A stretch of DNA of 64,000 nucleotides from Bacteroidales bacterium (GTDB lineage: Bacteria; Bacteroidota; Bacteroidia; Bacteroidales; GCA-2748055): positions 39,253-103,252 of the forward strand of contig JARGFM010000009.1 in the NCBI GenBank assembly GCA_029210725.1. The letters are read 5' to 3'. The notes beneath the pieces are model-generated. The model did no database searches. It worked only from the letters and a program-made list of their open reading frames with translations, and had not been told where the DNA came from. Made by a program: the position numbers and the translations under genes. Positions within the stretch are counted from its first letter, which is position 1; each line of letters opens with the position of its first letter. Of the stretch, positions 1,724 to 39,014 are shown one piece after another.

Positions 1724-1783
1724 GGGTTTCAGGTATTAATTGCTTATAATCCGGCCAAAGGTCCAGTTGATGTGCATGGATCA

Positions 1784-2164: not shown

Positions 2165-2259
2165 TTGAAGGGCCGGATTTAATAGATTCGTTTGATCCCT
2201 GAAGATAATTAAAAAATGAGGTCCCCTCCCGTGCAGAAGCTTCACGAAAGTGTTTTTTT

Positions 2260-3879: not shown

Positions 3880-3944
3880 AAGACTATACTTAGGTATTTT
3901 AAAAGTATAAAAATGATTAGAGAAAAAATCATTAAACTCGTAAT
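3880..3944. promoter_or_regulatory. Divergent AT-rich intergenic region between the sulfatase operon (-) and kdgK (+); presumed promoters
   Basis: 65 nt between two divergently oriented start codons, and very AT-rich (tattttaaaagtataaaaatgattagag). No consensus element was assigned with confidence. Confidence 0.35.
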
Positions 3945-4979: not shown

Positions 4980-5083
4980 CAGCAGCACGGGATATTTTTC
5001 CGGATCGCTTTCCACAGGCCCGCTTACTTCGCAGAGGGTGGACAGCAGGTCCCGGAAAGCGAATGAGGTCCGCTGTTCCTGCC

Positions 5084-7177: not shown

Positions 7178-7197
7178 AAGCTCTGAGTTTGCATGGA

Positions 7198-9138: not shown

Positions 9139-9316
9139 GGATATAGCCTTGATATGCTTTCAGGAATCGCATATAATTTACCAATAAAAACCAGCAAATC
9201 AATTCTGGAACAAATTAAATCCCCGGTTTTTCAATTTACGGAAAACCAGCATTGACAACTTTTACAGGGGTGATAGTAAGGATAATTGTGTTATAGGAGT
9301 GAATTGAAAGCAGAGA

Positions 9317-10516: not shown

Positions 10517-10599
10517 GCTTAGCTTGCTCCGGGATACTATTGGTCCACAAATATAGAGATTTTCGGGAAGTGCAAATCTTAAGAAATGTTAAAGAATGA

Positions 10600-11979: not shown

Positions 11980-12014
11980 CTTGTTGATCTTATATCCCCA
12001 AAGACCCGGAGCTA

Positions 12015-21091: not shown

Positions 21092-21106
21092 GAGAGGAGG
21101 CAGAAA

Positions 21107-23149
21107 ATGATACGAATAAAAGGCATATTGATTAGCGGAGCGATTGTACTGGTCCTTGCAGCGGTTCTTATTTTTGGAGGACGATGGGCCCGCGGACACG
21201 TGAATTATATAACGGCCACAGACGATCATCCCAGGACCTGCTGGAGCTGTCACATCTACACCCAGAAGGACAATTTCATCGCCAAACTGATAAACGAAAC
21301 CTACGTATCCCCCTATAAGCTGGACATCTCTCAGGATGGCAGCACCCTTTATGTGGTGGGACAGGAATCCAACGAAGTGATCGTGGTAGATACGGAAGAG
21401 GGAAAGGTCCTGGAAAAGATTCCCGTGGGACTGCGCCCCCACACAGTGACCCTGAGTCCCGACGGACAAAGTGCCTATGTAAGCAACCAGTGGGCCGATA
21501 ATATTTACCGCATCGATCTGGAAAGCCTGCGCGTGGTCGATACCCTGCTGAGCGGAGGCGGACCCGCGGGTTTGGTGATCAGTCCGGATGGAAAGCACCT
21601 CTGGTGCGTGAATTCCTATTCCAATGATATTTCGGTCTTTGACCTGGCTGATATGCAGGAGCGAAGGCGCCTGAAAGCCGGGAACAATCCTGTCTCGGCT
21701 GCCATGACGCCCGACGGCAGCGAGGTCTACGTGAGCAGCCGCCGCAGTGTGGATGTCCCCCATATGACCCATCCCCTGACCGAATTAACCGTGACCAGCA
21801 CCAAATACCAGCGGGTGAGCGACCGCAAAATGTTCCAGGATGCCTATATCATGGAAACGGTGGATGTAAGCCCGTCGGGCGACCTGGTATTGGCCACCCT
21901 GATCCGTCCGAAGAACCTTATTCCCACTATACAGATCGAGAGGGGCTGGATGATGACCCAGGGACTGGGCATTATCGAAAGGGAAAGCGGACGTATGGTC
22001 CAGCTGCTTCTCGACGAACCCAATGCCTTTTATGCCGATCCCTTCGGACTGGTAATCACTCCGGACGGGAAAAGAGCCTTTGTATCGCACGGGGCGGTAA
22101 ACAAGGTAACTGCCATCGACCTGGAAAAACTGCGCCAGGTACTTGCCGAAGTCCCGGACGAAGAACTGGAGGACTATGCCAATCACCTGGGATTAAGCAG
22201 CCGCTATGTCATCGGCCGCATTCCCACCGGGGCCAACCCGAAAGGGATGGTGCTGTCGCCCGACGGCCGCCTGCTTTACGTAGCCGAACGCCTGAACGAC
22301 CGGATTGCAGTGATCAATACGGAAAGTCTGGAAACGGTTGGAACCATCGGGCTGGAAGGGCCCCGGAGGCGAACCGTGGCCCGACACGGACGGCAGGTCC
22401 TGAACAATGCCAGTGGAACTTTCCAGAACCAGTATGCCTGCTATACCTGTCACCCTGATGCCCACGAGGACGGACTGGTCTACAATATGGCGGGGACGGA
22501 CATGGGACGAAACCTGGCTAATGTGCAAACCCTGAGGGATATAGGAGATATCCCTCCCTATAAGTGGAACGGAAAGAACCAGACTATCTACAAGCAGGAC
22601 GGCATGCGCTTCTCCACCATCCTGACCCGGAACGAGGCCTTTAGCTACAAAGAGCTGGATGCCCTGGTGGCCTATATCGTAACCGGAATTCCGAATCCGC
22701 CCAATCTCAGATATAATCCCACAGGGGAACTGACAGCCAAACAACAACGGGGCAAGGAGATCTTTTACCGGACCCACGATAACTTTGGCAACGAAATACC
22801 TGAAAAGAACCGCTGTCACACCTGTCACCCGCCTCCCTACTTCACCAATTTGGAGATGACCGATGTAGGGACCCTGGCCAACTCGGACGATCCCATGAAA
22901 TTTGACGTCCCCCAGCTAAACAATGTCTATGAATCGGCCCCCTACCTGCACGACGGGAAGGCCCCAACCCTGGAGGAGATCTGGACCAAATTCAATGACC
23001 ACGACGAGCACGGAGTGGCCAATGATATGTTTAAAGATCAGTTAAACGACCTGGTCGAGTACCTGAAGTCGCTCGGGGATGCGAAAAACTATATGGAGGA
23101 AGCCAAAATCTATGAAGCCTCTGTGTCAAAAAAAAATAAGCAAGAATGA
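21107..23149 (+). CDS. Membrane-anchored tri-heme protein: N-terminal CXXCH + YVTN-type beta-propeller + di-heme cytochrome c peroxidase (CCP/MauG)-like domain
   Basis: 680 aa with an N-terminal TM helix. The three CXXCH motifs are CWSCH (21239..21253), CYTCH (22439..22453) and CHTCH (22814..22828). YVTN-like blades are LYVVGQESNEVIVVD, LSPDGQSAYVSNQWADNIYRID, ISPDGKHLWCVNSYSNDISVFD and LSPDGRLLYVAERLNDRIAVIN. The CCP-like tail is DVPQLNNVYESAPYLHDGKAPTLEEIW. Confidence 0.7.
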   Translation: MIRIKGILISGAIVLVLAAVLIFGGRWARGHVNYITATDDHPRTCWSCHIYTQKDNFIAKLINETYVSPYKLDISQDGSTLYVVGQESNEVIVVDTEEGKVLEKIPVGLRPHTVTLSPDGQSAYVSNQWADNIYRIDLESLRVVDTLLSGGGPAGLVISPDGKHLWCVNSYSNDISVFDLADMQERRRLKAGNNPVSAAMTPDGSEVYVSSRRSVDVPHMTHPLTELTVTSTKYQRVSDRKMFQDAYIMETVDVSPSGDLVLATLIRPKNLIPTIQIERGWMMTQGLGIIERESGRMVQLLLDEPNAFYADPFGLVITPDGKRAFVSHGAVNKVTAIDLEKLRQVLAEVPDEELEDYANHLGLSSRYVIGRIPTGANPKGMVLSPDGRLLYVAERLNDRIAVINTESLETVGTIGLEGPRRRTVARHGRQVLNNASGTFQNQYACYTCHPDAHEDGLVYNMAGTDMGRNLANVQTLRDIGDIPPYKWNGKNQTIYKQDGMRFSTILTRNEAFSYKELDALVAYIVTGIPNPPNLRYNPTGELTAKQQRGKEIFYRTHDNFGNEIPEKNRCHTCHPPPYFTNLEMTDVGTLANSDDPMKFDVPQLNNVYESAPYLHDGKAPTLEEIWTKFNDHDEHGVANDMFKDQLNDLVEYLKSLGDAKNYMEEAKIYEASVSKKNKQE

Positions 23150-24219
23150 AAAAAGCACTGTTCATTGCCGGTCTATGTATGGTAGTCCCGGTCTTACTGA
23201 TGGCCGCGGAGCCGGAAGAAAAAAACAGTACCCTGCCGGAATTCGGCAACTGGGAAACCTTTACAACTAAAAATGGTCTGCCTGCCAACAAGGTCTATTG
23301 TGTGAGAGCCGACGGCGACCGGGTATGGATCGGTACCAGCCACGGACTGGTTCTTTATGAGAATGACGAATTTAAAACCTTTACCGAGGAGGACGGACTG
23401 GCCCACCCCGGTGTGCTTGCCATTGATGTGAGCGAGCTTACCGGCGATGTCTGGATCGGAACGCTGGGAGGATTGAACCGTTATTCGGGCGGGCAATTTG
23501 AGACTTTCACCCAGTTTAACAGCGGACTGGCCAATGATGTGATCTATTCGGTGATTTGCGATGGCAAGGATGTCTGGTGTGCCACCGGTGGCGGAGCAGG
23601 ACATTACGACACCTACCAGGAAGAATGGGCCATTTACACGGAACGTAATGCTCCCATGCACGAACCATGGACCTACAGTGTCTGTGCCGGGGATAACAAG
23701 GTCTGGATTGCTGCCTGGGGCGGTGGAGTGATCGAATGGCAAAAAGAAAACCAGACTTTCCGGGACTATGTGGACCCGGATGGCGAAATGGAAATCGACC
23801 TCTTCCCCGACGACGGGGTGGTTCACGATATTACCACCGCGGTATCCTTTGACAACGGCATCCTCTGGGTAGCCACCTACTTTGGAATGAGCCGTTACGA
23901 CGGGACCCACTGGAAAGGCTATTTTGATCATGACAGCGGACTGGCCAGCAACTTTATCAACTTTCTCAGAGCAGTCGATGATGTGGTCTACCTTTGTACG
24001 GACAAAGGACTCAGCAGCTTTAACAGTGAAGAGTGGGTCAGCTACCAGAAAACAGATCAGGGAGGAAGACGGCTCTACTGGAAGGATGGCAACGCCTCCA
24101 CCAAAGAGGATCCCACCGGGATCGCCCACAGTTTTACCATCGGGATGGATATCCAGGGGGATGACACCATCTGGGTGGCCACCTCCTACGGTCTGAGCCG
24201 CGGTCACAGAATCAATTAA
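23146..24219 (+). CDS. Secreted two-component-regulator-propeller (Reg_prop) repeat protein without kinase or DNA-binding domains
   Basis: 357 aa with a signal peptide. Repeats are NGLPANKVYCVRADGDRVWIGTSHGLVLY, DGLAHPGVLAID...DVWIGTLGGLNRY, SGLANDVIYSVICDGKDVWCATGGG and SGLASNFINFL. The start overlaps the previous stop (ATGA, 23146..23149). Confidence 0.7.
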   Translation: MKKALFIAGLCMVVPVLLMAAEPEEKNSTLPEFGNWETFTTKNGLPANKVYCVRADGDRVWIGTSHGLVLYENDEFKTFTEEDGLAHPGVLAIDVSELTGDVWIGTLGGLNRYSGGQFETFTQFNSGLANDVIYSVICDGKDVWCATGGGAGHYDTYQEEWAIYTERNAPMHEPWTYSVCAGDNKVWIAAWGGGVIEWQKENQTFRDYVDPDGEMEIDLFPDDGVVHDITTAVSFDNGILWVATYFGMSRYDGTHWKGYFDHDSGLASNFINFLRAVDDVVYLCTDKGLSSFNSEEWVSYQKTDQGGRRLYWKDGNASTKEDPTGIAHSFTIGMDIQGDDTIWVATSYGLSRGHRIN

Positions 24220-24221
24220 GC

Positions 24222-25553
24222 ATGAACGGAATCTCAATGGATCGAATCATGAAACATAGCAAACATATAGCAAGGACAATTCTCCTGGGCCTAACAGGGC
24301 TGTTAGTACTCTCTTCGCCCCCGGATCTGAATGCGCAGAGGTACCAGGAGAAGGATGATAACTATGGGAAGACACCCAGTGAAATGCTTCCTTACGGAAA
24401 CTACCAGGATGCCTATATCTACCATTTTCATGAGCCTCAACCCTTCCTGGGAGCCGGACGTGAAAAGAAGGAACCCACCGGGCTTTCAGAAGTACGGATC
24501 GGTGTGCTGGCTCCGCTGTCCGGCGATGTATTGTCCCCGCAGGGAAACCAGTTGCTTCAGGGAGCCATGCTGGCAGCCGAAGAGGCCAGTAAGCGAGGGG
24601 GCTATAAGGGACTTCCCTTCAAGGTCATGCCGCACAACGATGTGGGACTCTGGGGGGCAGCAGCCAACGAGGTGGTTAAAATGCATGACGAAGGCGCCTG
24701 GGCTGTTCTGGGCACCATCGATGATGTGAACTCCCACGTGGCCATCCGGGTCGCCCTGAAACTCGAGATACCGGTCGTCAATTGCGGGGACCCCGATCCC
24801 ACCTTCACCGAAACAGCCATCCCCTGGGTTATCCGGGTCATCGGCGATGACCGCCAGAGCAGTTACGCCCTGGTGGATTATATCCACCGCAAGATGGAAC
24901 ATAAGCGGGTAGCCGTGTTACGTGCCAACAACCGCTACGGGAGGGTGGGCATCATGGAATTCCGGGACGCCGCCCTGAGAATTGGCTATCCCCTGGTTCT
25001 GGAGGTCCGTTACGATGAGGGCGAAACCACCTTTGACGCACAGATCGAACGGATGAAGAACTCGAATCCCGATGCCATCTTACTCTGGGGGAATGCTAAT
25101 TCCATGGCGATGATCGTGAACCAGATCAGGGAGATGGGTATGGAACAACCCATCTATGCCTCGGACCGCTCAGTCAATCCGGATTTCCTGGAAATTGCCG
25201 GGGAAAATGCCGAGGGCATCATCACCACCTGCCAGTACAATCCCAAAGCGGACTCCCCTCAATTGAAAGCCTTTCAGGAAAATTATAAAAAACGCTTTGG
25301 AATGGAGCCGGATGTTTTTGCAGCACATGCTTATGACGGGATGAACCTGATTATTAAATCCATCGAGAAGGTAGGACTCAACAAGGCACTGATCCGGGAT
25401 AAACTTACCGATCTGAAAACCTTCCAGGGTTACGAAGGAATTACAGGTCCGATCATCCTGGACGGTTCATGGAATGATATCGGGTCTATCTTTCTGGCAG
25501 AGATCAAAGAAGGGGACTACCATTTCTCCCCGGCATCCTGGGAATGGAAATAG
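24222..25553 (+). CDS. Type I periplasmic solute-binding protein (LivK/Peripla_BP_6 family), exported
   Basis: 443 aa, with an alternative start at ATG 24249. The signal ends LNAQ. VRIGVLAPLSGDVLSPQGNQLLQGAMLAAEEASKRGGYKGLPFKV...AVLGTIDD is the typical branched-chain amino acid/amide-binding fold signature. It starts 2 nt after the previous stop. Confidence 0.75.
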   Translation: MNGISMDRIMKHSKHIARTILLGLTGLLVLSSPPDLNAQRYQEKDDNYGKTPSEMLPYGNYQDAYIYHFHEPQPFLGAGREKKEPTGLSEVRIGVLAPLSGDVLSPQGNQLLQGAMLAAEEASKRGGYKGLPFKVMPHNDVGLWGAAANEVVKMHDEGAWAVLGTIDDVNSHVAIRVALKLEIPVVNCGDPDPTFTETAIPWVIRVIGDDRQSSYALVDYIHRKMEHKRVAVLRANNRYGRVGIMEFRDAALRIGYPLVLEVRYDEGETTFDAQIERMKNSNPDAILLWGNANSMAMIVNQIREMGMEQPIYASDRSVNPDFLEIAGENAEGIITTCQYNPKADSPQLKAFQENYKKRFGMEPDVFAAHAYDGMNLIIKSIEKVGLNKALIRDKLTDLKTFQGYEGITGPIILDGSWNDIGSIFLAEIKEGDYHFSPASWEWK

Positions 25554-25589
25554 TACCTTAAGAAACCTTAAACCAACAAGGAGGAAGAG

Positions 25590-26456
25590 ATGCAAACAGA
25601 TACGTGTAGTATTGAAACCACCCTCAAAAGTGATGATCCCGACCTGGTCAGCAGAAGCGCCAGACCGGAGGGCACTATTGTTAATGTCAACGGCATCCGG
25701 ATCGGTGGCAAGGAGATTGTCATCATGGCCGGCCCCTGTGCCGTTGAGAGCGAGGTGCAATTAAGTGAAACAGCAAAAAGTGTCCGAAGCCTGGGAGCTT
25801 CCATCCTGAGAGGCGGGGCTTTTAAGCCGCGGACCTCCCCTTACAGTTTTCAGGGCCTGGGCATAGAGGGACTGGAGATGCTGGAAAGAGCCCGGGGTTT
25901 GACCGGTTTATCTGTGGTCTCTGAGGTCATGGATACCCGGCAGGTAGAGACCGTGGCCAGGTATGCCGATATGCTGCAGATCGGTTCCAGGAACATGCAG
26001 AACTTCCCCCTGCTGAAAGAGGCAGGGAAAACCTCCAAACCCATCCTTTTGAAGCGGGGGATGATGGCCACCATCGATGAATACCTGTATGCGGCCGAAT
26101 ACCTGCTTTCACAGGGAAATACCCAGGTGGTACTGTGCGAAAGAGGCATCCGGACCTTTGAATCATCCACCCGCTACACCCTGGATCTTAATGCCATTCC
26201 GGTACTGAAACAACGCACTCATTTACCCGTGATTGTGGATCCAAGTCATGGCACAGGGATACGATCCCTGGTGCCTACCATGGCCAGGGCCTCTATTGCC
26301 GCAGGGGCGGACGGATTATTAATGGAGGTACACTACCGGCCCGAAGAAGCCCTTTGTGATGGTTCACAATCCCTTTATCCCGAGGAGTTCGGGAGGATGA
26401 TGGGAGATCTCCGGAAAGTGGCAGAGGCCATAGGCCGCTCCATTCACGTGCTCTAA
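25590..26456 (+). CDS. 3-deoxy-7-phosphoheptulonate (DAHP) synthase, type I-beta
   Basis: 288 aa. [45 protein letters not shown] and VIVDPSH are DAHPS I-beta hallmarks. KPRTSP, as opposed to the KDO8PS variant, supports the DAHPS call. Confidence 0.85.
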
Positions 26457-26468
26457 ACCGGCCAGGTT

Positions 26469-27557
26469 TTGACCCGGCTTTCACGATACCTGTTTCTGGC
26501 GATCGTGGCCCTTCCTTTTGACGGGGCCGCTCAGGATCAGCAGCGAGTTCCCGGGGAGCATCTGACCCCTTCAGGCAAGATAGGCATCGGACTGCTCCTC
26601 CCCGATCCCAGCTATTGGAAAGTAGCTGAGGCAGCAGAACTGGCCATTCTGGAAGCCAATGATGCAGGCGGCTATAAGCAGCACGATTTTGAACTGATCA
26701 TCCGCACTGCAGAAGGGTTCTGGGGCGCAGGTTCCAAAGAATCGGTCAGTTTGGTTTATGAGGACCGTGTCCGGGCTATCATCGGGTCACTGGACGGCCG
26801 GAACGGACATCTGGCCGAACAGGTGGCCACCAAGTCGCACCTCACTTACATGGAGACCTTCGCCACCGAGCCCACCCTTTCTCAGGCCTTTGTTCCCTGG
26901 TTCATGCGGGTGGTGCCCAATGATGACCAGCAGGCGGCTGTCATCCTGGACCAGATACAAAAAGAAGGCGGAGGAAAAACCGGCATCCTCTCGGTAGAGA
27001 GCTACGACACCCGTTATGCCATTAAAAGTCTTACCAAAGCGGTAACTCAGAAAACCGGAATGGCACCAGTGCTAATCCCCCTGGATACCAGCCATACCAG
27101 GCAGCAGAGAGTTTTCGGTCAGATCATAAGCAATGAACTGGATCACTTAATTATTCCCTACTACGCAGCTAACATGAGTGATCTGATTCAAAGCCTTGGA
27201 ACGCAGAAACCAGGCCTGAAAATCTATGGCACCCTCCACTTTAAGATGGGAATGGAGAGCCGGGAATCGGGCTCTGAAGCTTTCGAAGGAATTTACCTGA
27301 TTGGTCTGCATGCTGCCAGGGAAAGCAAGTTTCCGGACTGCCGCTCTGCCTATTTGTACGATGCTGTAAACCTGGTTATCAATGCAATTCAGCATGTCGG
27401 AACAGACAGGACATCCATCACAAATTACCTGAGCGAATCGACCTTTTACAAAGGGCTAAGCGGCACTATCTCCTTTGACGAACTGGGAAACAGGAAAAGT
27501 GTTCCTTCCCTGCTGCGTATTGAAAACGGGAGCCTGCATGTATTAAATCACCCCTGA
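26469..27557 (+). CDS. Type I periplasmic solute-binding protein (LivK/Peripla_BP_6 family), exported; TTG start
   Basis: 362 aa. The TTG at 26469 is followed directly by a signal peptide (LFLAIVALPFDGAAQ), and there is no in-frame ATG for about 120 codons. IGIGLLLPD...AELAILEANDAGGYKQHDFELI...AIIGSLDG follows the same fold pattern as 24222..25553. Confidence 0.7.
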   Translation: MTRLSRYLFLAIVALPFDGAAQDQQRVPGEHLTPSGKIGIGLLLPDPSYWKVAEAAELAILEANDAGGYKQHDFELIIRTAEGFWGAGSKESVSLVYEDRVRAIIGSLDGRNGHLAEQVATKSHLTYMETFATEPTLSQAFVPWFMRVVPNDDQQAAVILDQIQKEGGGKTGILSVESYDTRYAIKSLTKAVTQKTGMAPVLIPLDTSHTRQQRVFGQIISNELDHLIIPYYAANMSDLIQSLGTQKPGLKIYGTLHFKMGMESRESGSEAFEGIYLIGLHAARESKFPDCRSAYLYDAVNLVINAIQHVGTDRTSITNYLSESTFYKGLSGTISFDELGNRKSVPSLLRIENGSLHVLNHP

Positions 27558-27562
27558 AACAC

Positions 27563-29059
27563 TTAGCTGGAAGGGGTATTAAAGGAGAGGGAGTTTACAT
27601 AAATATCCTGGAAATCCTTCTCAGACTCCAGGTTCACATGGCTGCTAAGGCCCAGAATCTTTTCAGTCAGCTCCATCGGGGAAAAGAGAAACATCTTGGC
27701 TCCCATCAAAGCGGAGTTTCCCAGTTTTCGAAAACGATCCGGAGGAAAATCCATCATTCCTGTCCGAAGCATCTTCTCCAGATTAATATAGGTACCAAAA
27801 GCCCCGGATATGTAAATACGGGAGATCTCCTCTGCACTGATTCCAAGCTTTCGCAGCAGAATAGTCAGACCGGCCGCGATGGCTGCCTTGGCCAGCAGGA
27901 ACTCCTGGATATCCCTGGCTGTAAGGCTGACCCCCTCCGTAAGAGCTATCTCCCCATCACCTGAGAGGATCTCCCCAAAAACTCCCAGCATACCCCTGTC
28001 CAGGAGCGTGGCCACCGCATCGATCAGGCCGCTTCCGCAGATTCCTGAAGCCGGAACATTCCCGATCACCCGGCAACTTAATCCCTCCCCGCTGTCCGTG
28101 ACCGACGAAATAGCCCCGGTAGTGGCCAGCATCCCCCTGGATATCCTGGCACCTTCAAAAGCAGGTCCTGCTGCGGTGGAGGCACATAACAAGCGCTCTC
28201 TGTTCCCAACGACAATCTCCCCGTTGGTTCCCAGGTCCACCAGTACCGAATACTCCTTTCTGCGCCACAGGTCCGTGGCATGTATTCCCGCCAGGATATC
28301 ACTTCCCACAAAGCTCCCGATGGAAGGGAAGAAGCTGATCCGGTCACAGTTTAAATCCCAGTCCAGCCCGGAGGCGCTGAATTCCCTGATTCCCAGGTCG
28401 GGCGAATCAAAGGGATAATAAGCCAGCGGCCTGATATCGGCGCCGGAAAACAGATGCTGCATCACCGTGTTCCCCACCATCACGATCCTCTCGATCCTGG
28501 TCTTTCTTCCTCCGGTCAGCTTCAGTAACATGGCTCCGATCTCCTCCCGGATCAAGCGGCTTAGCCGGGGCCCGTTCCCGGCAAGTGCCGATTCAAGCCT
28601 GGTGATCAGATCGCTTCCCCATCTGCGCTGGGGGTTCAGGGCTGTTTCAACAGCAAGCACCTTTGAGCTAGAGAGGTCCACCAGCTGCGCCACCAGGGTG
28701 GTGGTTCCCAGATCCACTGCCACTCCATAACCGGAAAGGGGCACAAACGAGAAGGAACTTTCATCGGCCTGGATCATCGTTTCGAACTGTCCCACTTCCA
28801 GCACCAGATCCTCCTCAGCCCTGCTCATGCAAGCCAGTCTCCACTCCGGGGAAAGTCCCAGTTCTTTAAGTTTTCTCTGATGCTCCGGAATGGTTTGGAT
28901 TAGGCCCCCGGCTACCTTCACTTTACACTTGCCACATCTTCCCTTCCCCCCGCAGGGAAATTCAACACCGAATTCGTGCAGAGCATCGATTAAGGAAGCT
29001 CCCCTGGTGACTGTCAGTTCTTTGCCAGGAGGAAGTAGTGTGATCCGGACGGTTTCCAA
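27563..29059 (-). CDS. Corrinoid reductive activase (RACo/AcsV-like: N-terminal 2Fe-2S ferredoxin + ASKHA ATPase, DUF4445)
   Basis: 498 aa. The N-terminus FPCGGKGRCGKCKVKV...RLACMS is a plant-type 2Fe-2S motif. It is followed by ASKHA-like phosphate loops (YGVAVDLGTTT, VLVDLGTNGE) and ICGSGLID. Confidence 0.8.
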   Translation of the reverse strand: METVRITLLPPGKELTVTRGASLIDALHEFGVEFPCGGKGRCGKCKVKVAGGLIQTIPEHQRKLKELGLSPEWRLACMSRAEEDLVLEVGQFETMIQADESSFSFVPLSGYGVAVDLGTTTLVAQLVDLSSSKVLAVETALNPQRRWGSDLITRLESALAGNGPRLSRLIREEIGAMLLKLTGGRKTRIERIVMVGNTVMQHLFSGADIRPLAYYPFDSPDLGIREFSASGLDWDLNCDRISFFPSIGSFVGSDILAGIHATDLWRRKEYSVLVDLGTNGEIVVGNRERLLCASTAAGPAFEGARISRGMLATTGAISSVTDSGEGLSCRVIGNVPASGICGSGLIDAVATLLDRGMLGVFGEILSGDGEIALTEGVSLTARDIQEFLLAKAAIAAGLTILLRKLGISAEEISRIYISGAFGTYINLEKMLRTGMMDFPPDRFRKLGNSALMGAKMFLFSPMELTEKILGLSSHVNLESEKDFQDIYVNSLSFNTPSS

Positions 29060-29062
29060 AAG

Positions 29063-29731
29063 CTAAACGGCAAGTTCTTTTAAGTATTCCACGGCACCGC
29101 GGGGATCGGGGGAATAGAAATCAGCTCCGATCTGGATTCTGAACTCGTCTGTCAGAGGAGCTCCGCCCACCAGGATCCTGGTACCGGGATGAGTCCCTTT
29201 GATCTTCCTTACAATCTCCTCCATATTGGCCATGGTAGTGGTAAGCAGAGCGGACAGGCCGACCACCGCCCCCGGATTCTCCGAAACTGCCTGTGTAAAG
29301 GTATCTTCATTCACATCCACGCCCAGGTCAATGATGCTCCATCCCCCGCCTTCCACCATCATAGCCACCAGATTCTTTCCAATATCGTGCAGGTCACCCT
29401 TCACGGTACCGATGATAAAGGTTCCTTTGGTTTTCACATCACCACTCTGAAAGAAGGGCTTCAGGTGCTTCATGGCAGCCCCCATGGCTTTGGCGGACAT
29501 TAACATCTGGGGGACAAATATCTTGTTCTCTGAAAACTTTTGTCCGATGCGGTCCATGGCCGGGACCAGCGCCACGGTAAGAATATCTGAGGGAGATACT
29601 CCACTGGCCAGAGCCTCGAAGGCAATTTCATCCGCTCCGTCCAGTCCCTTCATCTGCGGGGGATAGGGGGAGTTTTTGTCCACTTTTCCAGCTTCCACTG
29701 CTTCACCAAGTTTTACTAATAAGGAATCCAT
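29063..29731 (-). CDS. Cobalamin-binding corrinoid protein (methyltransferase cognate, MtbC/MttC-like)
   Basis: 222 aa with an N-terminal B12-binding cap helix bundle. The Rossmann domain carries the DxHxxG motif (VKGDLHDIGKNLV) and GLSALLTTT. Its stop lies 3 nt before the activase start. Confidence 0.85.
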   Translation of the reverse strand: MDSLLVKLGEAVEAGKVDKNSPYPPQMKGLDGADEIAFEALASGVSPSDILTVALVPAMDRIGQKFSENKIFVPQMLMSAKAMGAAMKHLKPFFQSGDVKTKGTFIIGTVKGDLHDIGKNLVAMMVEGGGWSIIDLGVDVNEDTFTQAVSENPGAVVGLSALLTTTMANMEEIVRKIKGTHPGTRILVGGAPLTDEFRIQIGADFYSPDPRGAVEYLKELAV

Positions 29732-29863
29732 AAATAGTGAGGTTTTAGAATGTAATGTCAGGCTTTGCTGAAGGTAAAAATAGTGATTATGAAACAGTAA
29801 TTTGATATTACCCGTATAGTTTGTTCAGAATAGTTTTATCTTCAGAATTCAAAGTCCTCCAAC
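29732..29863. promoter_or_regulatory. Divergent control region between the corrinoid-protein/activase operon (-) and the fhs operon (+), with short direct repeats
   Basis: 132 nt between divergent starts. AAATAGTGA occurs at 29732..29740 and 29778..29786, and TTCAGAAT at 29824..29831 and 29841..29848. I recognised no cobalamin-riboswitch core. Confidence 0.4.
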
Positions 29864-31531
29864 ATGAATGATCTTGACATAGCCAAAAAAGTAAAGCTAC
29901 TGCATATCTCAGCCATCGCAGGCAAGCTGGGTATTCACGAAGATCTGATAGAGATGTTCGGTAAGTATAAAGCCAAGCTGCCCCTGCATCTCATTGATGA
30001 AAAGCGGGTTAAACAGAGCAAGCTGATCCTGGTATCCGCCACCTCTCCCACTCCTGCGGGAGAGGGCAAAACTACGGTATCCATAGGCCTCTCAGAGGGG
30101 CTTAACCGCCTGGGGAAGAAAAGCACGGTGGTTCTCAGGGAGCCTTCCCTGGGGCCCATCTTCGGGATCAAGGGAGGGGCCACCGGCGGAGGATACTCCC
30201 AGGTACTGCCCATGGAGGATATCAATCTTCATTTCACGGGCGACTTTGCCGCTATCGAAAAGGCGCATAACCTGCTCTCCGCGGTGATCGATAACAATAT
30301 TCAAAGCAGGACCAACGGACTGGGACTCGATCCGAGAACCATCTCCTGGAAAAGGGTGATTGATATGAATGACCGGTCGTTGCGCCGGATCATCGTGGGG
30401 CTTGGAGGCACCACCTCAGGCGTTCCGAGGGAAACCGGCTTCGATATTACAGCAGCCTCGGAGATCATGGCCATCCTTTGCCTGGCGGCCGATATTCACG
30501 ATCTGAAAATCAGGCTGGGCAATATTTTTGTAGGATATACGCATCAGAAAGAGCCCATATATGCCCGGGATCTGAAAGCGGAAGGGGCCATGGCTGCCCT
30601 GCTGAAAGATGCCATTATGCCCAATCTGGTACAAACCATTGAAGGAAATCCGGCCATTATTCACGGAGGGCCCTTTGCCAATATCGCCCAGGGGACCAAC
30701 TCAGTGATAGCCACCAAGATGGGAATGACCCTTTCGGAGTATACCGTCACGGAAGCGGGCTTTGGCTTTGACCTGGGAGCTGAGAAATTCTTCGATATCA
30801 AATGTCAGAGTGCGGGCCTTTCACCGAAGGTGGTGGTCCTGACCACCACCATCCGGGCCCTGAAATACCATGGCGGTGCCGAATTGATGAAACTGAAGGA
30901 TCCGGATCCTGAAGCCCTGAGAAAGGGACTGCCCAACCTGGAAAAACACCTGGAAAACATCAGGCAGTTTAAGGTGACTCCCGTGATAGCCCTGAACCGC
31001 TTTACCTCCGATACCAAAGAGGAGATCGACATGGTGCTTGAAAAAGCCAGATCACTGGGCGTCGACTGCGCCGTGGCAGATCTTTGGGCCAAAGGAGGCG
31101 AAGGGGCCCTGGATCTGGCAGAAAAGGTGATGGCCCTTGCCGAGTCCGACCCTCCGGTGTTTGAGCCCCTGTATGACTGGAACTGGGATGTAAAAAGAAA
31201 GATAGAAACTCTGGCCACCAGGATATATGGTGCCGAACATGTGGATTACTCGCCCCAGGCCAGGCAGGATTTGAAAAAGATTTCCGAACTGGGTCTGGAA
31301 CAACTGCCGGTCTGTATTGCCAAGACTCAAAAATCCCTCTCCGACAATCCCGCCCTGCTGGGCCGGCCCAAAGACTTTATCATCACTGTACGCGAGATTG
31401 AGATTGCATCGGGAGCAGGATTCCTGATCCCCATTACCGGAAACATCATGAGGATGCCTGGCCTGCCGGCCCATCCGGCATCAGAAAATATCAGCATCGA
31501 TAATGACGGGAATATTACAGGACTCATGTAA
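29864..31531 (+). CDS. fhs: Formate--tetrahydrofolate ligase
   Basis: 555 aa with end-to-end resemblance to Fhs. Motifs include DIAKKVKLLHISAIA, TPTPAGEGKTT, GIKGGATGGGYSQV and PVCIAKTQKSLSDNP. Confidence 0.95.
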   Translation: MNDLDIAKKVKLLHISAIAGKLGIHEDLIEMFGKYKAKLPLHLIDEKRVKQSKLILVSATSPTPAGEGKTTVSIGLSEGLNRLGKKSTVVLREPSLGPIFGIKGGATGGGYSQVLPMEDINLHFTGDFAAIEKAHNLLSAVIDNNIQSRTNGLGLDPRTISWKRVIDMNDRSLRRIIVGLGGTTSGVPRETGFDITAASEIMAILCLAADIHDLKIRLGNIFVGYTHQKEPIYARDLKAEGAMAALLKDAIMPNLVQTIEGNPAIIHGGPFANIAQGTNSVIATKMGMTLSEYTVTEAGFGFDLGAEKFFDIKCQSAGLSPKVVVLTTTIRALKYHGGAELMKLKDPDPEALRKGLPNLEKHLENIRQFKVTPVIALNRFTSDTKEEIDMVLEKARSLGVDCAVADLWAKGGEGALDLAEKVMALAESDPPVFEPLYDWNWDVKRKIETLATRIYGAEHVDYSPQARQDLKKISELGLEQLPVCIAKTQKSLSDNPALLGRPKDFIITVREIEIASGAGFLIPITGNIMRMPGLPAHPASENISIDNDGNITGLM

Positions 31532-31586
31532 GCCGGACAGGTCAGAAATATTATGTTCATAAGTGTATCACTTTCCATTCGTTCAT

Positions 31587-32441
31587 ATGCAAACCATACT
31601 CAGAGGCAAGACAAAAGAGGTGATCATCGACACCGAAGGACCGGTAGTCGTCATTGGCGAAAGCATCAATCCCACCCGCCGCAAGAAACTGGCGGAGACC
31701 CTGCGAAACCATGATTTTGAATTCGTCCTGCAACTCGCAAAATCGCAGATAGAAAGCGGCGCAGAGGTCCTGGATGTAAATGTGGGCTTTCCCGGGGTGG
31801 ACGATGAAAGCATGCTGCCAGAAACTGTGAGGGCCATTCAGGAGAGCTTTGACATCCCCCTCTGCCTGGACTCCCCCAATCCCAAAGCCATCGAGGCAGC
31901 ATTAAAGGCGGCCGAAGGCAAAGCTTTGATTAACTCGGTGAATGGAGAAGAAAAGTCCCTGCAGGCCATCCTTCCCCAGGCCAGAGAGTACGGAGCAGCA
32001 GTGATCGGGCTGGTGATGGATGAGGAAGGGATCACACAGGATCCGGAACTCAGATTTCAGATTGCAGAAAAGATTCTTAACCGGGCCGTCCGGACAGGGA
32101 TTCCAGCGGAGGATGTGATCATTGATCCCCTGGCCATGGCGGTCAGCGCCGATCACGATGCATGTATGGTCACCCTGCAAACCATCAAACTGGTTCACGA
32201 CCGACTTGGTCTCAATATCACACAGGGAGCCAGCAACATCTCTTTCGGACTGCCTAACAGGGAAGAACTGAACAAGGCTCATTTGGCCATTTCCATCTGG
32301 AACGGTCTCAGTTGTCCCATCGCCAACCCTGACAAAATCACGACCTTTGTCAGGGCCCTGGACCTGGTCAGGGCCAGGGATGAATTCGCTATGCGGTTTA
32401 CAGAATTCTTCTTTAGTCAGGAGGCTTTGAAAAACAGTTGA
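31587..32441 (+). CDS. Methyltetrahydrofolate:corrinoid methyltransferase (pterin-binding TIM barrel, AcsE/MetH-pterin-domain-like)
   Basis: I take the start at ATG 31587, because the track ORF starts at GTG 31563. VVVIGESINPTRRKKL, GAEVLDVNVG, LCLDSPNP, LINSVNGE and NISFGLPNR are typical of the Pterin_bind domain. Confidence 0.8.
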   Translation: MQTILRGKTKEVIIDTEGPVVVIGESINPTRRKKLAETLRNHDFEFVLQLAKSQIESGAEVLDVNVGFPGVDDESMLPETVRAIQESFDIPLCLDSPNPKAIEAALKAAEGKALINSVNGEEKSLQAILPQAREYGAAVIGLVMDEEGITQDPELRFQIAEKILNRAVRTGIPAEDVIIDPLAMAVSADHDACMVTLQTIKLVHDRLGLNITQGASNISFGLPNREELNKAHLAISIWNGLSCPIANPDKITTFVRALDLVRARDEFAMRFTEFFFSQEALKNS

Positions 32442-32465
32442 TCAAACAACTTAAACTCAGAAGCA

Positions 32466-33920
32466 ATGGCCGTATTTACCCCAGGCAGAAGATGGCAGGC
32501 TCCCTTCCTGCCTTCTAAGAAAGAGCCCTTTGGCAAAAGAGTTCTGAGAAAGGTGGAGCGGATGGTGAAGGGCCCCCTCTTCGGCTGCCGGATGTGTGGG
32601 AACTGCCTGCTTCAGGAAACCGCCTTTATCTGCCCCATGGAGTGTCCCAAAGGCATGCGTAACGGGCCCTGTGGAGGATCAACACCGGAAAAGTGCTATG
32701 TGGATGAGACCCGGCCCTGCATCTGGTATAAAATCTATGAACGCTCCTTTAAGATGGGCAGGGAGAAGAGGCTGCTCGAAGTATTGCCGCCCCTGGATTG
32801 GGACAAGGCAGGGACCGAAACCTGGGGAGATGTAATCCGTTCGATCCGTCATTTCGGTTCCGGCAGCTTTATTAAAGCAGGTCTCTCCCGGAACAAGGAG
32901 AAAAAACGGGAATCCTGGGAAGCGGTGTTTCAAGCGGTCCGGCAGCCCTCCTGGTGGAAAGGCGACCCGGAATATCATCCCCCTCTGAAAAAAGAGCCCG
33001 TCTCCCCCTTGGAGAGTGCCCTGAAGGCAGGGAAATTTGTTATTACTGCCGAGGTATCCCCGCCTTTGAGTGCAGCCACCGGAAAGCTGAAGCGCGACAT
33101 TGCCCTGGTCGGGGATCTGGTCACAGCCATTAACTTTACCGACAGTGCCTCGGCTTATCCGCGCATGTCGAGCATGGCCTGCTGCAAGATCGCCGCTGAT
33201 ATGGGTGCAGATCCGGTGCTTCAGATCGCAGCCAGGGACAAAACCCGCAGCGGATTGCAATCCGATATCATGGGAGCCAATGTCATGGGGGTACATAATG
33301 TACTGTGCATTTCAGGCGACCATGCCCGCACAGGCCCCACACCCACCAGCTCTACCAATATCCTGGATATGGATGCGGTGCAGATGCTCTGGATACTGAG
33401 ACGAATGAGAGATGAAGGCATCTATCTGGATGGACGGAAGATGAATTCGGCTCCCCGCTTGTTCCTGGGAGCCGCTGCTTCTCCTTTTGCTTCTGAACCC
33501 CGTTTTCAGGCCCTCCGAGAAGAAAAGAAGATCAATGCCGGGGCACAGTTTTTCCAGACCAACCTGATCTTCGACGCGCAGGCACTGGATCCGTGGCTGG
33601 AAGCACTGGATAAAAGAGGGGTGCCTGATAAGGTCTTCATCCTCGCCGGAGTTACTCCCATACGAAGCAGGCGGATGGCCCTGCACCTGCATCACCACAT
33701 TCCGGGAGTCCGGATTCCCAAAAACATCCTGGACCGCTTCGAAGAGGCTAAAGAAGATAATTATGAAGAACTTGGAGTGGAGATTGCCCTGGATATCATG
33801 GAAAAGATCCGGGGTAAACAAGGCATCAGGGGCTTCCACCTGATGTCGGTAGGCTGGGAAGCCATCGTGCCCCGCCTTATCAGGGATGCCGGACTGCAAA
33901 GCTCCTTGAGAGCAGTTTAA
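32466..33920 (+). CDS. metF: MetV-MetF fusion: MTHFR_C zinc-ribbon-like domain + methylenetetrahydrofolate reductase
   Basis: 484 aa. The N-terminal Cys-rich FGCRMCGNCLLQETAFICPMECPKGMRNGPCGG is a MetV-type domain. It is followed by FVITAEVSPP, INFTDSA, LQIAARDK, NVLCISGD and FFQTNLIFD, which are MetF TIM-barrel motifs. Confidence 0.8.
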   Translation: MAVFTPGRRWQAPFLPSKKEPFGKRVLRKVERMVKGPLFGCRMCGNCLLQETAFICPMECPKGMRNGPCGGSTPEKCYVDETRPCIWYKIYERSFKMGREKRLLEVLPPLDWDKAGTETWGDVIRSIRHFGSGSFIKAGLSRNKEKKRESWEAVFQAVRQPSWWKGDPEYHPPLKKEPVSPLESALKAGKFVITAEVSPPLSAATGKLKRDIALVGDLVTAINFTDSASAYPRMSSMACCKIAADMGADPVLQIAARDKTRSGLQSDIMGANVMGVHNVLCISGDHARTGPTPTSSTNILDMDAVQMLWILRRMRDEGIYLDGRKMNSAPRLFLGAAASPFASEPRFQALREEKKINAGAQFFQTNLIFDAQALDPWLEALDKRGVPDKVFILAGVTPIRSRRMALHLHHHIPGVRIPKNILDRFEEAKEDNYEELGVEIALDIMEKIRGKQGIRGFHLMSVGWEAIVPRLIRDAGLQSSLRAV

Positions 33921-37082: not shown

Positions 37083-37796
37083 TTACAGACTCTCCTGGAA
37101 GAACGCTGAAAGGCCATCCACAAAAGTCCCCAGGCTGGGCATCTTTTCCGCCAGGGCATGGTTGAAATGGTTAAAATCAAGTTTTTGGACCACCGCGCTG
37201 AGCCTGTCCCGTTTTTTGGTGTAATCGTGACCCACCAGCTGGTAGGCGGCTTTCATATCTGCAGCCGGCCGGTCGCGGTCCTCCATGTTTTCTGTACGTG
37301 GATTAAATCCCAGCCGTTTCTCAATAAACTGGGGTGTCAGTTTGGGTGAAACCTTTTTCAGATGTTTGTATTCTCCCAGGAACCAGGCCTCGGTCTCCAT
37401 CACTGCCAGATAAATCCTGGTGGCTGCTCCCTTCTGTGGTAATTTATAATTGAGCCCCCTCCGCAGTCTGCCTACCTCCTCCCGCTTGAAATTGGGATAT
37501 ACATCTCTCAGTCCCATAACCATGGTATACCCGCTGGAGACCAGTTTATCGCGGTGCGCCATCAGGTAGCCTTTCACATTGCTTTCACCTCCACAATCGT
37601 AAATCATGATATAATAGTCCGTATACCTCTCCACATGGGCGGCCCGCATCACCGTGAAAGACATTCTGACATTGTGCCCGCCGGTGATCTTTACGGTTTG
37701 AATGGCGATCCTGTTCTGTCCGAGTACTGTCTGAAGCATATGCCTGACCAGGATCTGTTCGGTAAGCCCCTCTACAAAAATGGCCAGTTTTCTCAT
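37083..37796 (-). CDS. DUF4276-family protein (TOPRIM-like, putative nuclease partner of the upstream ATPase)
   Basis: 237 aa. The N-terminal MRKLAIFVEGLTEQ (acidic VEG.TE motif), YDCGGES and AVMETEAWFLG fit my recollection of DUF4276. It overlaps the ATPase gene by 4 nt. Confidence 0.65.
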   Translation of the reverse strand: MRKLAIFVEGLTEQILVRHMLQTVLGQNRIAIQTVKITGGHNVRMSFTVMRAAHVERYTDYYIMIYDCGGESNVKGYLMAHRDKLVSSGYTMVMGLRDVYPNFKREEVGRLRRGLNYKLPQKGAATRIYLAVMETEAWFLGEYKHLKKVSPKLTPQFIEKRLGFNPRTENMEDRDRPAADMKAAYQLVGHDYTKKRDRLSAVVQKLDFNHFNHALAEKMPSLGTFVDGLSAFFQESL

Positions 37797-38959
37797 GCTC
37801 CCTGATCTTCATCCTCATCCTCGTCGCTGAATCCGGAGCGGAAGAACTCACTGGCATAAAAATCAAAATTGTTCAGCCCGGTAAATTTAAACTCCTCGAA
37901 GATCTCCTTTGAATTTTCGTAGTTAAAGAGGCTGATCTTATGCCCTTCCCGCATAATCACTGCCCAGTTTTCAATATCTACCGCATTCATTATAAAGGAG
38001 TCATTGGTGGACATGATCAGCTGAATTTCAGCTTCTGCTGCCTTGGAGATCAGGACCTGTACCAGTTGCTTGGCCCTGGAGAAATCGAGCCCTTCTCCGA
38101 TGTCATCGATAATCACGAAACCTTTATGCTTGCAGAGTATGTAGTAATTCACCTGCACCAGTACGGAGAATGCCCGGAACATCCCCTGGGACATATCGCG
38201 CTGGGTCACCTGTTTTTCCAGTCCCGTCTCTGTCGTGTAAACCGCAAAACGGTCCTGGCTGCCACCGCTGAAACGCTCCGAAAAACGGATGACCCCGAAA
38301 TCATGCAGGTCATATCCGATCTGCTTCATATCCTTCAGGACCAGTTGGTGGAACTCAGGAAACTCCTCCTCAGCCACCGAAATGGCTGGAACCAGCGAAT
38401 TTGCTGTATCGGTCCAGTCTACTTCTCTGGATTCGAAGGAAGATTTCAGGGCATATCGTGATTTCCCTAAATCGCTGCTGAAATTAAACCTTCGGAGGCT
38501 GATGGCCCAGCTGTGGATCATCTCAATAAAGGGGTGCTGCAGCCGGTCGCGCTTGGCATAACAGGCCAGCTGATCGTGCGGAATCGCGAAATCCAGGAAC
38601 ATGGAATCCGGAGTAGCCACATACTTAACGATTCCGGTACCGCCCTCCTTTCGCTCCAGCACCATCTCCTCTCCCACATAGAGGCGCTCCAGGTGTATGG
38701 TGTCCAGATCATACTCCAGTTCATATTTCATTTCATTTTCGCTGTTCCTGAACAATAACTCGTAACTCACCGGTCCGGTGGCCGTGGTCCCCTTGCCCAT
38801 AAGCATACTCACCAGATCTGATATAGCATTCAGAGTACGGGTTTTTCCGCTGGAATTTTTTCCCACGACCAGGTTGGTCAGGCCGAGGCTCACCTGATCA
38901 ATGAGCCATTCGATGTTCTGACCGGCATTTTCACGAAAAGTAAAACTTTTAAGATACAT
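37793..38959 (-). CDS. ABC/SMC-type AAA ATPase (AAA_21/AAA_15-like)
   Basis: Walker A is GKNSSGKT (38840..38863), with a signature-like SQGM and Walker B FVIIDDIGEGLD. The tail is acidic (SDEDEDEDQGA). I prefer the start at ATG 38959, because the alternative upstream ATG at 39025 would overlap the preceding gene by 11 nt. Confidence 0.75.
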   Translation of the reverse strand: MYLKSFTFRENAGQNIEWLIDQVSLGLTNLVVGKNSSGKTRTLNAISDLVSMLMGKGTTATGPVSYELLFRNSENEMKYELEYDLDTIHLERLYVGEEMVLERKEGGTGIVKYVATPDSMFLDFAIPHDQLACYAKRDRLQHPFIEMIHSWAISLRRFNFSSDLGKSRYALKSSFESREVDWTDTANSLVPAISVAEEEFPEFHQLVLKDMKQIGYDLHDFGVIRFSERFSGGSQDRFAVYTTETGLEKQVTQRDMSQGMFRAFSVLVQVNYYILCKHKGFVIIDDIGEGLDFSRAKQLVQVLISKAAEAEIQLIMSTNDSFIMNAVDIENWAVIMREGHKISLFNYENSKEIFEEFKFTGLNNFDFYASEFFRSGFSDEDEDEDQGA

Positions 38960-39014
38960 GCTGAGAAGCTGTTGGTACTTATAAAAACTGAAAGGTTCCG
39001 CATACCCTTTGTTC

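Follow-up and report, generated by a model that had tools for sequence, protein, structure and literature searches.

A module of five genes that joins a corrinoid protein to the methyl branch of folate metabolism was analyzed in a 64-kb stretch of contig JARGFM010000009.1 of a Bacteroidales bacterium (the whole stretch is referred to below as the window). The module lies at 27563-33920 and comprises the genes of a RACo-type activase and a corrinoid protein (CoP) on the minus strand and those of formate-tetrahydrofolate ligase (Fhs), a methyl-tetrahydrofolate:corrinoid-protein methyltransferase (MeTr) and a MetV-MetF fusion (MetVF) on the plus strand. As predicted from their sequences, the five gene products are a self-contained and chemically reversible route between methylated corrinoid protein and formate. 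In the reading to which we give an even chance, the module would be the acceptor side of a modular demethylase, that is, a methyltransferase II (MT-II) with disposal of the C1 unit, which passes the methyl group via tetrahydrofolate (THF) to formate and ATP, while the genes of the substrate methyltransferase (methyltransferase I, MT-I) are unlinked. The MT-I is probably encoded elsewhere, in sugar-degradation loci. Because the same architecture was found in 34 other species, the module is not an oddity of this contig; it is a conserved trait of environmental Bacteroidales.

Gene content and conservation of the module

The five genes and their placement had been proposed in a preliminary description of this DNA and were borne out by Pfam, NCBIfam and PDB comparisons and by motifs. 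The features of the module are as follows.

27563-29059, minus strand: RACo/RamA-type ATP-dependent reductive activase (RACo), 498 aa; Fer2, Raco_middle and RACo_C_ter, E 4e-63 (Pfam)
29063-29731, minus strand: corrinoid (cobamide-binding) methyl-carrier protein (CoP), 222 aa; PF02607 (B12-binding_2, cap) and PF02310 (B12-binding, Rossmann)
29732-29863, no strand: divergent intergenic region, 132 bp, which keeps the CTATTTTTAC box and has neither the AAAATAGCATCATAAAnnGTGAA box nor an AraC gene
29864-31531, plus strand: Fhs, 555 aa; PF01268, E 1e-253; PRK13505, 843 bits (cut-off 652)
31587-32441, plus strand: MeTr, AcsE/MT-II-type pterin-binding TIM barrel; PF00809 (Pterin_bind); PRK07535, 263.5 bits (cut-off 259)
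32466-33920, plus strand: MetVF, a Cys-rich MetV part fused to a methylene-THF reductase barrel, 484 aa; PF12225 and PF02219

RACo has an N-terminal 2Fe-2S ferredoxin domain, with the motif Cys36/42/45/77, and an ASKHA ATPase. Its closest solved structure is the Carboxydothermus activase 3ZYY (E 6e-70), and its matches to the AcsV and RamA models fall under the cut-offs of these models. Its start is separated from the stop codon of the CoP gene by 3 nt. CoP carries the motifs D113-x-H-x-x-G, S160-x-L and G189-G. The top PDB match of this protein was the Moorella corrinoid protein 1Y80 (168 bits, E 1.5e-48), with MetH at 96 bits, and in NCBIfam it scored 95-101 bits with the MtaC models (cut-offs 420-450) and 183 bits with MtgC_2 (cut-off 370). 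CoP is nearer to methylotrophic corrinoid proteins (1Y80, MtgC/MtbC models) than to MetH. The open reading frame (ORF) of MeTr opens at a GTG codon at 31563, and orthologues align from the ATG at 31587 (tblastn), which is probably the start. MeTr was found to be about equally near to AcsE (2YCI and 1F6Y, 136 and 130 bits), to the MT-II of a Desulfitobacterium hafniense O-demethylase (4O0Q, 125 bits) and to the pterin domain of MetH (T. maritima, 122 bits). The MetV part of MetVF contains 8 Cys within residues 41-85 of the fusion. Because the genes downstream of MetVF are variable and unrelated between relatives, the operon was taken to end at this gene.

All five genes are intact and under purifying selection. 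Compared with 34 orthologous loci, dN/dS was 0.05-0.15 across the five genes (RACo 0.15, against 37 orthologues; CoP 0.06; Fhs 0.05; MetVF 0.07), GyrB giving 0.03 for comparison. Therefore, the module genes show no decay, and the pseudogenization that the preliminary description had considered is not the case.

On the basis of homology, motifs and conservation, RACo would hold CoP in the Co(I) state at the expense of ATP, MeTr would swap the methyl group between CoP and THF, MetVF would interconvert methyl-THF and methylene-THF, and Fhs would interconvert formyl-THF and formate plus ATP. The intermediate FolD step would be served by a gene elsewhere in the organism; tblastn placed no FolD in the window beside Fhs and MetVF, and folD stands in the cluster in 4 of 35 relatives. 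Methyl groups would arrive on CoP from MT-I enzymes encoded elsewhere and would be oxidized to formate, giving one ATP and reducing equivalents, and the formate might leave through a FocA-like channel, which is encoded in the operon in 16 of 35 loci of the same type.

Distribution and gene order in Bacteroidota

A Bacteroidales metagenome-assembled genome (MAG) at NCBI encodes a protein that is 100% identical to the window CoP, and more than 120 cluster representatives share 83-89% identity with this CoP. Relatives of CoP were found in 229 GTDB species representatives (one genome per species). The best 80 of these loci, all from Bacteroidota, were analyzed after clustering and annotation of their ORFs; individual loci are numbered with the prefix L. 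All neighborhood counts given here come from phylogenetically related MAGs and overstate independence. The five-gene divergent architecture was present in 34 of the 80 best loci, corresponding to 34 Bacteroidales species besides that of the window. The statement of the preliminary description that the gene set is unusual for Bacteroidota was thus overstated, and for environmental Bacteroidales it is wrong. Four types of locus were distinguished (percentages are CoP identity to the window; arrowheads give the gene order).

Type A, 35 loci including the window, about 80-89%: MetVF<MeTr<Fhs(<FocA-like channel)(<FolD)<AraC / CoP>RACo
Type B, 26 loci (Prolixibacteraceae, Tangfeifania, Mariniphaga), 67-70%: AraC / CoP(>URO-D)>MtaB>CobW>RACo
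Type C, 7 loci, 65-68%: CoP>MeTr>MetVF>Met_synt_B12-like domain
Type D, 4 loci (L041 and L066-L068; L041 without AraC), 65-70%: AraC / CoP>MeTr>MetVF>Fhs

Additional genes of the type-A loci are those for an AraC regulator (31/35), the FocA-like formate channel (16/35; 280 bits against 98 for NirC) and FolD (4/35). The type-A AraC is 53-56% identical to the AraC that heads the MtaB (methanol) clusters. In sister architectures, the CoP gene is the first gene of an operon that also holds MeTr and MetVF.

Type B is, judging by its genes, a methanol-type system. Complete MtaB (PF12176, E 1e-155)/CoP/CobW/RACo clusters with AraC were observed in these loci (L039-L080, e.g., L062 10001-13500) in Prolixibacteraceae, Tangfeifania, Mariniphaga, Paludibacter and Lentimicrobiaceae, most of them without a methyl acceptor enzyme nearby. 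Such clusters would imply methanol-derived methyl transfer in fermentative Bacteroidales. The MtaB homologues among the 120 matches listed were all Prolixibacteraceae-type proteins at least 83% identical. MtaB adjoined CoP in none of the 35 type-A loci, as against the 26 sister loci in which CoP is 67-70% identical.

Two further observations concern individual loci. In L020 (4010-10669), from one long-read MAG, a type-A CoP (84% identical) is isolated among short ORFs, apart from a truncated MetF fragment in the vicinity; either this copy of the module has decayed or the assembly is rich in frameshifts. CoP-MeTr-MetVF loci of types A and C (L044, L078, L079, L017, L052 and L075) lie repeatedly beside genes for GH10 xylanase, CE15 glucuronyl esterase, GH3 and GFO/IDH/MocA proteins. 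Methylated uronic acids, such as 4-O-methyl-glucuronate, are a conceivable methyl source in these cases, for which there are too few independent genomes.

Upstream region of the CoP gene

Two boxes were recognized in an alignment of the 150 bp upstream of the CoP gene from more than 40 loci (regions including L002-L045). The AAAATAGCATCATAAAnnGTGAA box is kept across type-A and type-B loci, with the CTATTTTTAC box following about 35 bp downstream. In the window, the CTATTTTTAC box is at 29774-29783 on the minus strand, and the AAAATAGCATCATAAAnnGTGAA box is degenerate, as it is in L008, both of which also lack the AraC gene. The AAAATAGCATCATAAAnnGTGAA box is likely to be the AraC operator. 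AraC and channel genes are lacking in the window, as in L008, L013 and L036. Because only the CTATTTTTAC box is kept in the window, AraC control appears to have been lost in this lineage. A scan of the intergenic region for sigma-70 promoters and terminators gave results no better than shuffled sequences, and such a scan does not cover Bacteroidota promoters. No Rfam model matched the 64 kb at the gathering threshold, so there is no B12 or SAM riboswitch in the window.

Candidate substrate methyltransferases

Pfam scans covered the 48 non-overlapping ORFs with a length of 90 aa or more, and the window was searched in six frames by tblastn with reference proteins. No MttB, MtaB, URO-D, FolD, FNT formate channel, AraC or CODH/ACS (carbon monoxide dehydrogenase/acetyl-CoA synthase), nor any relic of an MT-I, was found in the 64 kb. 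The absence of an MT-I, FolD and CODH/ACS that had been stated earlier for the module therefore holds for the whole stretch.

The likeliest MT-I candidates are proteins of the URO-D superfamily encoded in fucosidase, sulfatase and deoxy-sugar loci of related Bacteroidales: a URO-D-thioredoxin fusion (URO-D-Trx) accompanied by a CobW-type GTPase, and divergent URO-D proteins of 414-467 aa, for which there is no close solved relative. Methylated sugars and methyl compounds of sulfur or selenium are possible methyl donors. URO-D-Trx consists of 540 aa, with a URO-D domain and two thioredoxin-like domains. Its mean column identity is 76% from Bacteroidales to Cyclobacteriaceae, with an invariant CxxC. 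The nearest solved relative is the thiol methyltransferase MtaA (4AY7); the His of the Zn site is replaced and the two Cys are kept. An alignment scan of metagenomes gave at least 574 matches, from Bacteroidales to aerobic Cyclobacteriaceae.

Of 85 URO-D-Trx loci, 54 have a gene of the CoP family adjoining the fusion; the loci further contain CobW (56), a stand-alone PF02574 homocysteine methyltransferase (HcyMT; 42), a Met_synt_B12-like domain (17) and AraC (21), and MeTr was found in none. The usual order is AraC / CoP>URO-D-Trx>HcyMT>CobW, sometimes followed by the Met_synt_B12-like domain (e.g., L084 9258-14198 and L096-L166, among them L118, L133 and L152). Since such a cluster has a homocysteine acceptor and needs a donor-side enzyme, URO-D-Trx would by elimination be that enzyme. 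The cluster has the appearance of a B12-dependent methionine synthase that works without folate and takes the methyl group from another donor. Other recurrent neighbors (sdh genes, GntP permease and PfkB) give no firm clue to the substrate.

Several loci bring these candidates close to the module. The URO-D-Trx/CobW pair lies at most 7 kb from it in three type-A loci (L019, L029 and L167). In L019 and L029, the order is CoP-RACo-URO-D-Trx-CobW, with the fusion directly after RACo (L019 7030-9700). In L167, which has the order FolD-AraC/CoP-RACo and a CoP 82.7% identical to that of the window, the module stands directly beside a fucosidase-SSF-URO-D(467) operon and URO-D-Trx-CobW (3425-12558). 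In the L024 genome, the pair is on the same contig as a type-A module, 33 kb away. In L170, L171 and L083, one same-strand array (L170 1693-21623) runs from rhaM to RACo through genes for URO-D (414 aa), fucosidase, sulfatase, a DHDPS-type aldolase, an SSF transporter, URO-D-Trx, CobW and CoP. L168 and L169 have, in this order, genes for sulfatase, rhaM, a lactonase-like amidohydrolase, MFS, AKR, ADH, fucosidase, sulfatase, URO-D-Trx, CobW and PfkB. The fucosidase of the long L170, L083 and L167 arrays is an alpha-L-fucosidase, and these arrays suggest corrinoid-dependent processing of something released from sulfated fucosides.

The left end of the window belongs to a similar region.

1-3879, minus strand: left-end synteny block, with sulfatase (2260-3879), rhaM (1784-2287), MFS (422-1723) and the 5' end of a sulfatase gene (1-275)

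The first 5 kb of the window are collinear with L168 in three blastn blocks of 76-82% nucleotide identity, and the MFS proteins are 92.8% identical. The sulfatase that crosses the left edge is the orthologue of the one immediately before URO-D-Trx-CobW in L168 and L169. Because of this collinearity, a candidate MT-I (URO-D-Trx/CobW) may lie about 1.3 kb to the left of the window. Of the three explanations offered in the preliminary description for the missing MT-I, an unrecognized or distant enzyme is the best supported, given the pairing of the CoP family with MtaB or URO-D-Trx/CobW, the linked type-A loci, L024 and the left-end synteny; for the genome of the window itself, the enzyme is only predicted.

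Direction of the pathway and weight of the demethylase reading

From gene context, the direction leans to methyl oxidation. The FocA-like channel and FolD suit stoichiometric export of formate better than a trickle to methionine, and the AraC belongs to the same family as the AraC of the MtaB clusters. The position of CoP nearer to methylotrophic corrinoid proteins than to MetH points the same way, as does a second methylene-THF reductase (MTHFR) of the window, which would be available for anabolism and fits a dedicated catabolic MetVF. Finally, MeTr and HcyMT exclude each other as neighbors. Across about 165 loci of the CoP family, they never occurred together: HcyMT lay within 10 kb in 0 of 49 MeTr loci and in 42 of 81 URO-D-Trx loci (Fisher p = 1e-11; the loci are related, so independence is overstated). 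Being mutually exclusive and each combining with URO-D-Trx, MeTr and HcyMT behave as alternative acceptors. On its way to formate, methyl-THF gives one ATP, at Fhs, and four reducing equivalents, which Bacteroidales could hand to fumarate or protons.

Several facts weigh against a demethylase. Sequence cannot fix the direction, and oxidation of methyl-THF requires a suitable electron acceptor. There is no MT-I in the 64-kb window, so that an MT-I in this genome is a prediction only, and 32 of 35 type-A loci (33 of 36 with L167) have none within 10 kb. The close orthologues of URO-D-Trx (at least 72% identity) form about 19 clusters as against more than 120 clusters of type-A CoP; among them, one was co-resident with a module on a contig of 214,183 bp, and none was on a Mb-scale type-A contig. 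For these reasons, URO-D-Trx cannot be the universal donor enzyme. Its assignment to the donor side follows from cluster logic only, and its nearest characterized relatives are thiol methyltransferases. In addition, neither AraC nor the channel nor the operator-like box has survived in the lineage of the window.

A more specific form of the demethylase reading is proposed tentatively, at well under an even chance: a hitherto undescribed corrinoid-dependent demethylation in anaerobic Bacteroidales. It would act on methylated sugars, or on methyl-sulfur or methyl-selenium compounds, from sulfated fucose-rich glycans, URO-D-Trx (with CobW as a metallochaperone) and URO-D(414-467) in fucosidase-sulfatase-transporter operons would be the MT-I enzymes, and the module would be their shared back end, leading to excreted formate and ATP.

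Alternative explanations

The module might instead be part of a disassembled methionine synthase, as the preliminary description had also considered. Formate would then pass via Fhs, FolD and MetVF to methyl-THF, and further via MeTr and CoP to a separate homocysteine domain to give methionine, with RACo in place of the reactivation domain of MetH. The pterin-binding (MeTr), B12-binding (CoP) and reactivation (RACo) functions are present in the module, and the window contains one candidate for the fourth function.

60797-62638, minus strand: homocysteine S-methyltransferase fused to MTHFR (YitJ-like), 613 aa; PF02574 and PF02219; PRK08645, 735 bits (cut-off 453)

With this protein, which the preliminary description did not contain, all four MetH functions occur in the window as separate proteins. 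It has the only homocysteine-binding domain of the window and is its second MTHFR. A split MetH with a RamA-like reactivase has a genetic precedent in Phaeobacter and Desulfovibrio (10.1101/192971). A methionine synthase would also account for the order CoP-MeTr-MetVF-Met_synt_B12-like domain in type C, for the HcyMT found beside the CoP family in the URO-D-Trx loci and for the strong sequence conservation, which suits a housekeeping role, and it requires no MT-I, in line with 33 of 36 loci. However, none of the 49 MeTr loci has a PF02574 domain within 10 kb, and the YitJ-like gene is outside the module, 27 kb away. Its product is only 34-37% identical to the HcyMTs that adjoin this CoP family elsewhere, and a close kinship with these corrinoid-linked enzymes was rejected on this ground. 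An AraC activator, a formate channel and Fhs would be odd for a small methionine flux, a second MTHFR would be redundant, the window has no SAM or B12 riboswitch, and CoP is not closest to MetH. Thus, the earlier suggestion gained a PF02574 domain in the window and found no support in the gene neighborhoods. We consider a split methionine synthase, the most serious competitor of the demethylase reading, possible but rather unlikely. As an observation on the YitJ-like gene itself, it sits alone between a sulfatase gene and small ORFs, with no pterin or B12 part of MetH adjoining it and no riboswitch.

A dual-purpose hub like MtgBCDE of Ruegeria, in which one CoP and a bidirectional methyl-THF methyltransferase both demethylate substrates, with several unlinked MT-I enzymes, and make methionine via a separate HcyMT, was judged quite unlikely. 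In Ruegeria, MtgC and MtgD are indispensable to both functions, and several MT-I paralogues are encoded elsewhere in the genome (PMC12478193). The CoP family combines variously with MtaB, URO-D proteins, MeTr and HcyMT, the window has a homocysteine-binding domain, and a hub of this kind is compatible with everything seen. On the other hand, no MttB-family protein was found in any locus, and MeTr and HcyMT were never clustered together. Moreover, a hub overlaps both a demethylase and a methionine synthase and is distinct from neither.

It had also been suggested that the module works together with the adjoining operon of exported binding proteins (24222-27557), in which two Peripla_BP_6/ANF_receptor genes flank a DAHP synthase gene and whose products would import or sense the methyl donor. 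This operon is directly beside RACo, and the same neighbors occur in 16 of 35 type-A loci. Being convergent to the module, it is not part of the same transcript. The other 19 loci lack it and have efflux, sulfatase or other unrelated genes in its place, a sulfatase gene often being inserted between. Species with the module and without the binding proteins therefore exist. The pattern follows GyrB-side synteny in a sub-lineage, and no membrane or ATPase component of a transporter adjoins. The binding-protein operon was accordingly rejected as a partner and attributed to lineage synteny; cooperation with the module is very improbable.

A remnant or partial Wood-Ljungdahl methyl branch feeding a CODH/ACS or corrinoid iron-sulfur protein (CFeSP) encoded elsewhere is hardly to be credited: Fhs, AcsE-like MeTr, MetVF and RACo are all Wood-Ljungdahl-associated families, but CoP is a small MtaC/MtgC-like protein with a His-on DxHxxG motif and not the two-subunit CFeSP, the window contains no CODH/ACS domain, and its sole CdhD match is a weak TIM-barrel similarity of MeTr, so this candidate was rejected.

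Other genes of the window

The remainder of the window has the gene set of a degrader of sulfated glycans, with sulfatases, GH127, GH42, a fucosidase, rhaM, sugar kinases and an aldolase. At 19712-27557 on the plus strand, there is a gene string that is kept in about 15 relatives and has an odd composition. It encodes an HZS-alpha-like/PD40 protein, a 680-aa beta-propeller protein with cytochrome-c/MauG-like matches at its C-terminus and a Reg_prop protein, in addition to the two exported Peripla_BP_6/ANF_receptor proteins on either side of DAHP synthase. At 37083-39025 on the minus strand, a gene for an AAA_21 ATPase (AbiLi/AriA-like, PADLOC E 1e-20) is paired with one for a DUF4276/OLD-TOPRIM protein (HEC-01B-like). 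This pair, which adjoins a DNA alkylation repair gene and an unannotated ORF of 555 aa, is a candidate anti-phage defense pair.

Comparison with known systems

Corrinoid methyl-transfer systems are well known from methanogens and acetogens and from a few reducers of organohalides or sulfate, and Bacteroidales are known as glycan fermenters. Mechanistically, the module would work like the part of the demethylases of acetogens and Desulfitobacterium that consists of MT-II, corrinoid protein and activase, joined to the methyl branch. It shares with these systems (methanol MtaB/MtaC/MT-II; OdmABCD and MtvABC with RACE/RACo) a small His-on CoP, an ATP-dependent 2Fe-2S/ASKHA activase, a pterin-binding methyl-THF methyltransferase (4O0Q and 1F6Y are among the top matches) and onward oxidation by MetF(V), FolD and Fhs; Moorella 1Y80 is the best solved relative of CoP. 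In characterized systems, the genes of MT-I, corrinoid protein and MT-II normally lie together (PMC10418091). The module differs in that it has no MT-I and is clustered instead with Fhs, MetVF, a formate channel and AraC. Its host is a non-acetogenic member of the Bacteroidales with no CODH/ACS in view, and the end product would be formate and not acetate. CoP with its motifs, the activase and MT-II are all present, and because an MT-I is not encoded with them, the module is not a complete three-component system. The preliminary description was correct in its core. A methyl-THF methyltransferase, a corrinoid protein and the activase of this protein occur together with methyl-branch enzymes and with no MT-I in cis, both in the window and in 32 of 35 type-A loci, or 33 of 36 when L167 is included.

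In organization, the module comes closest to the MtgBCDE hub of marine Alphaproteobacteria. The hub of Ruegeria pomeroyi and Phaeobacter (PMC12478193) and the split MetH (10.1101/192971) have in common with the genes described here a CoP that stands alone and serves as a hub, a bidirectional methyl-THF methyltransferase and a PF02574 HcyMT as separate proteins, a reactivase of the RamA/DUF4445 type and MT-I genes scattered in the genome. The hosts of MtgBCDE are aerobic Alphaproteobacteria with MT-I enzymes of the MttB family, whereas the donor enzymes in relatives of the window are MtaB and URO-D proteins. Furthermore, the THF methyltransferase of the window is in an operon with Fhs and MetVF and is never clustered with HcyMT.

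The nearest description of the URO-D-Trx/CoP/HcyMT clusters is that of the type 1 mlp clusters, in which an MtaA-like URO-D protein, a corrinoid protein and a RACE activase occur without an H4folate methyltransferase (Kountz and Balskus preprint, PMC10418091). Salvage of methyl-sulfur or methyl-selenium compounds into methionine was proposed for these clusters, which are found mainly in Firmicutes and Methanococcales; the text makes no mention of Bacteroidetes (PMC10418091). The mlp clusters lack the thioredoxin fusion, CobW and the PF02574 partner. The module of the window is the reverse of type 1 mlp, with the H4folate methyltransferase present and URO-D absent.

In aerobic marine Flavobacteriia, 6-O-methyl-D-galactose is demethylated by cytochrome P450, a reaction that depends on O2 and releases formaldehyde. 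That system resembles the one proposed here in placing a demethylating activity inside the algal-polysaccharide utilization loci of Bacteroidota. In contrast, the module would be anaerobic and corrinoid-dependent and would keep the methyl group as methyl-THF; the sugar substrate is deduced from gene context only. A full-text literature search found no description of the module, of MtaB in the physiology of Bacteroidales or of corrinoid enzymes in fucoidan loci.

Significance

The module links a corrinoid protein, the folate methyl branch and formate in dozens of species of sediment and soil Bacteroidales. If it were a split methionine synthase after all, it would be a fully disassembled methionine synthase in Bacteroidota and would matter for the prediction of auxotrophies from MAGs. 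If it is the acceptor side of a demethylase, its hosts could draw methyl groups from methanol, methylated sugars or methyl-sulfur compounds and supply syntrophic partners with the formate that they release. The assignment of methyl-group and formate fluxes in anoxic sediments would change, and a B12-dependent trait would be added to a phylum that is central to B12 ecology. The possible tie to fucose and sulfated-glycan loci is the part that could be really new. The clusters in fucosidase/sulfatase operons are a concrete and testable candidate for the handling of methylated sugars by anaerobes, and demethylation of sugars or of methyl-sulfur or methyl-selenium compounds, if true, would give the phylum a new energy-yielding trait, as an anaerobic counterpart of P450 sugar demethylation.

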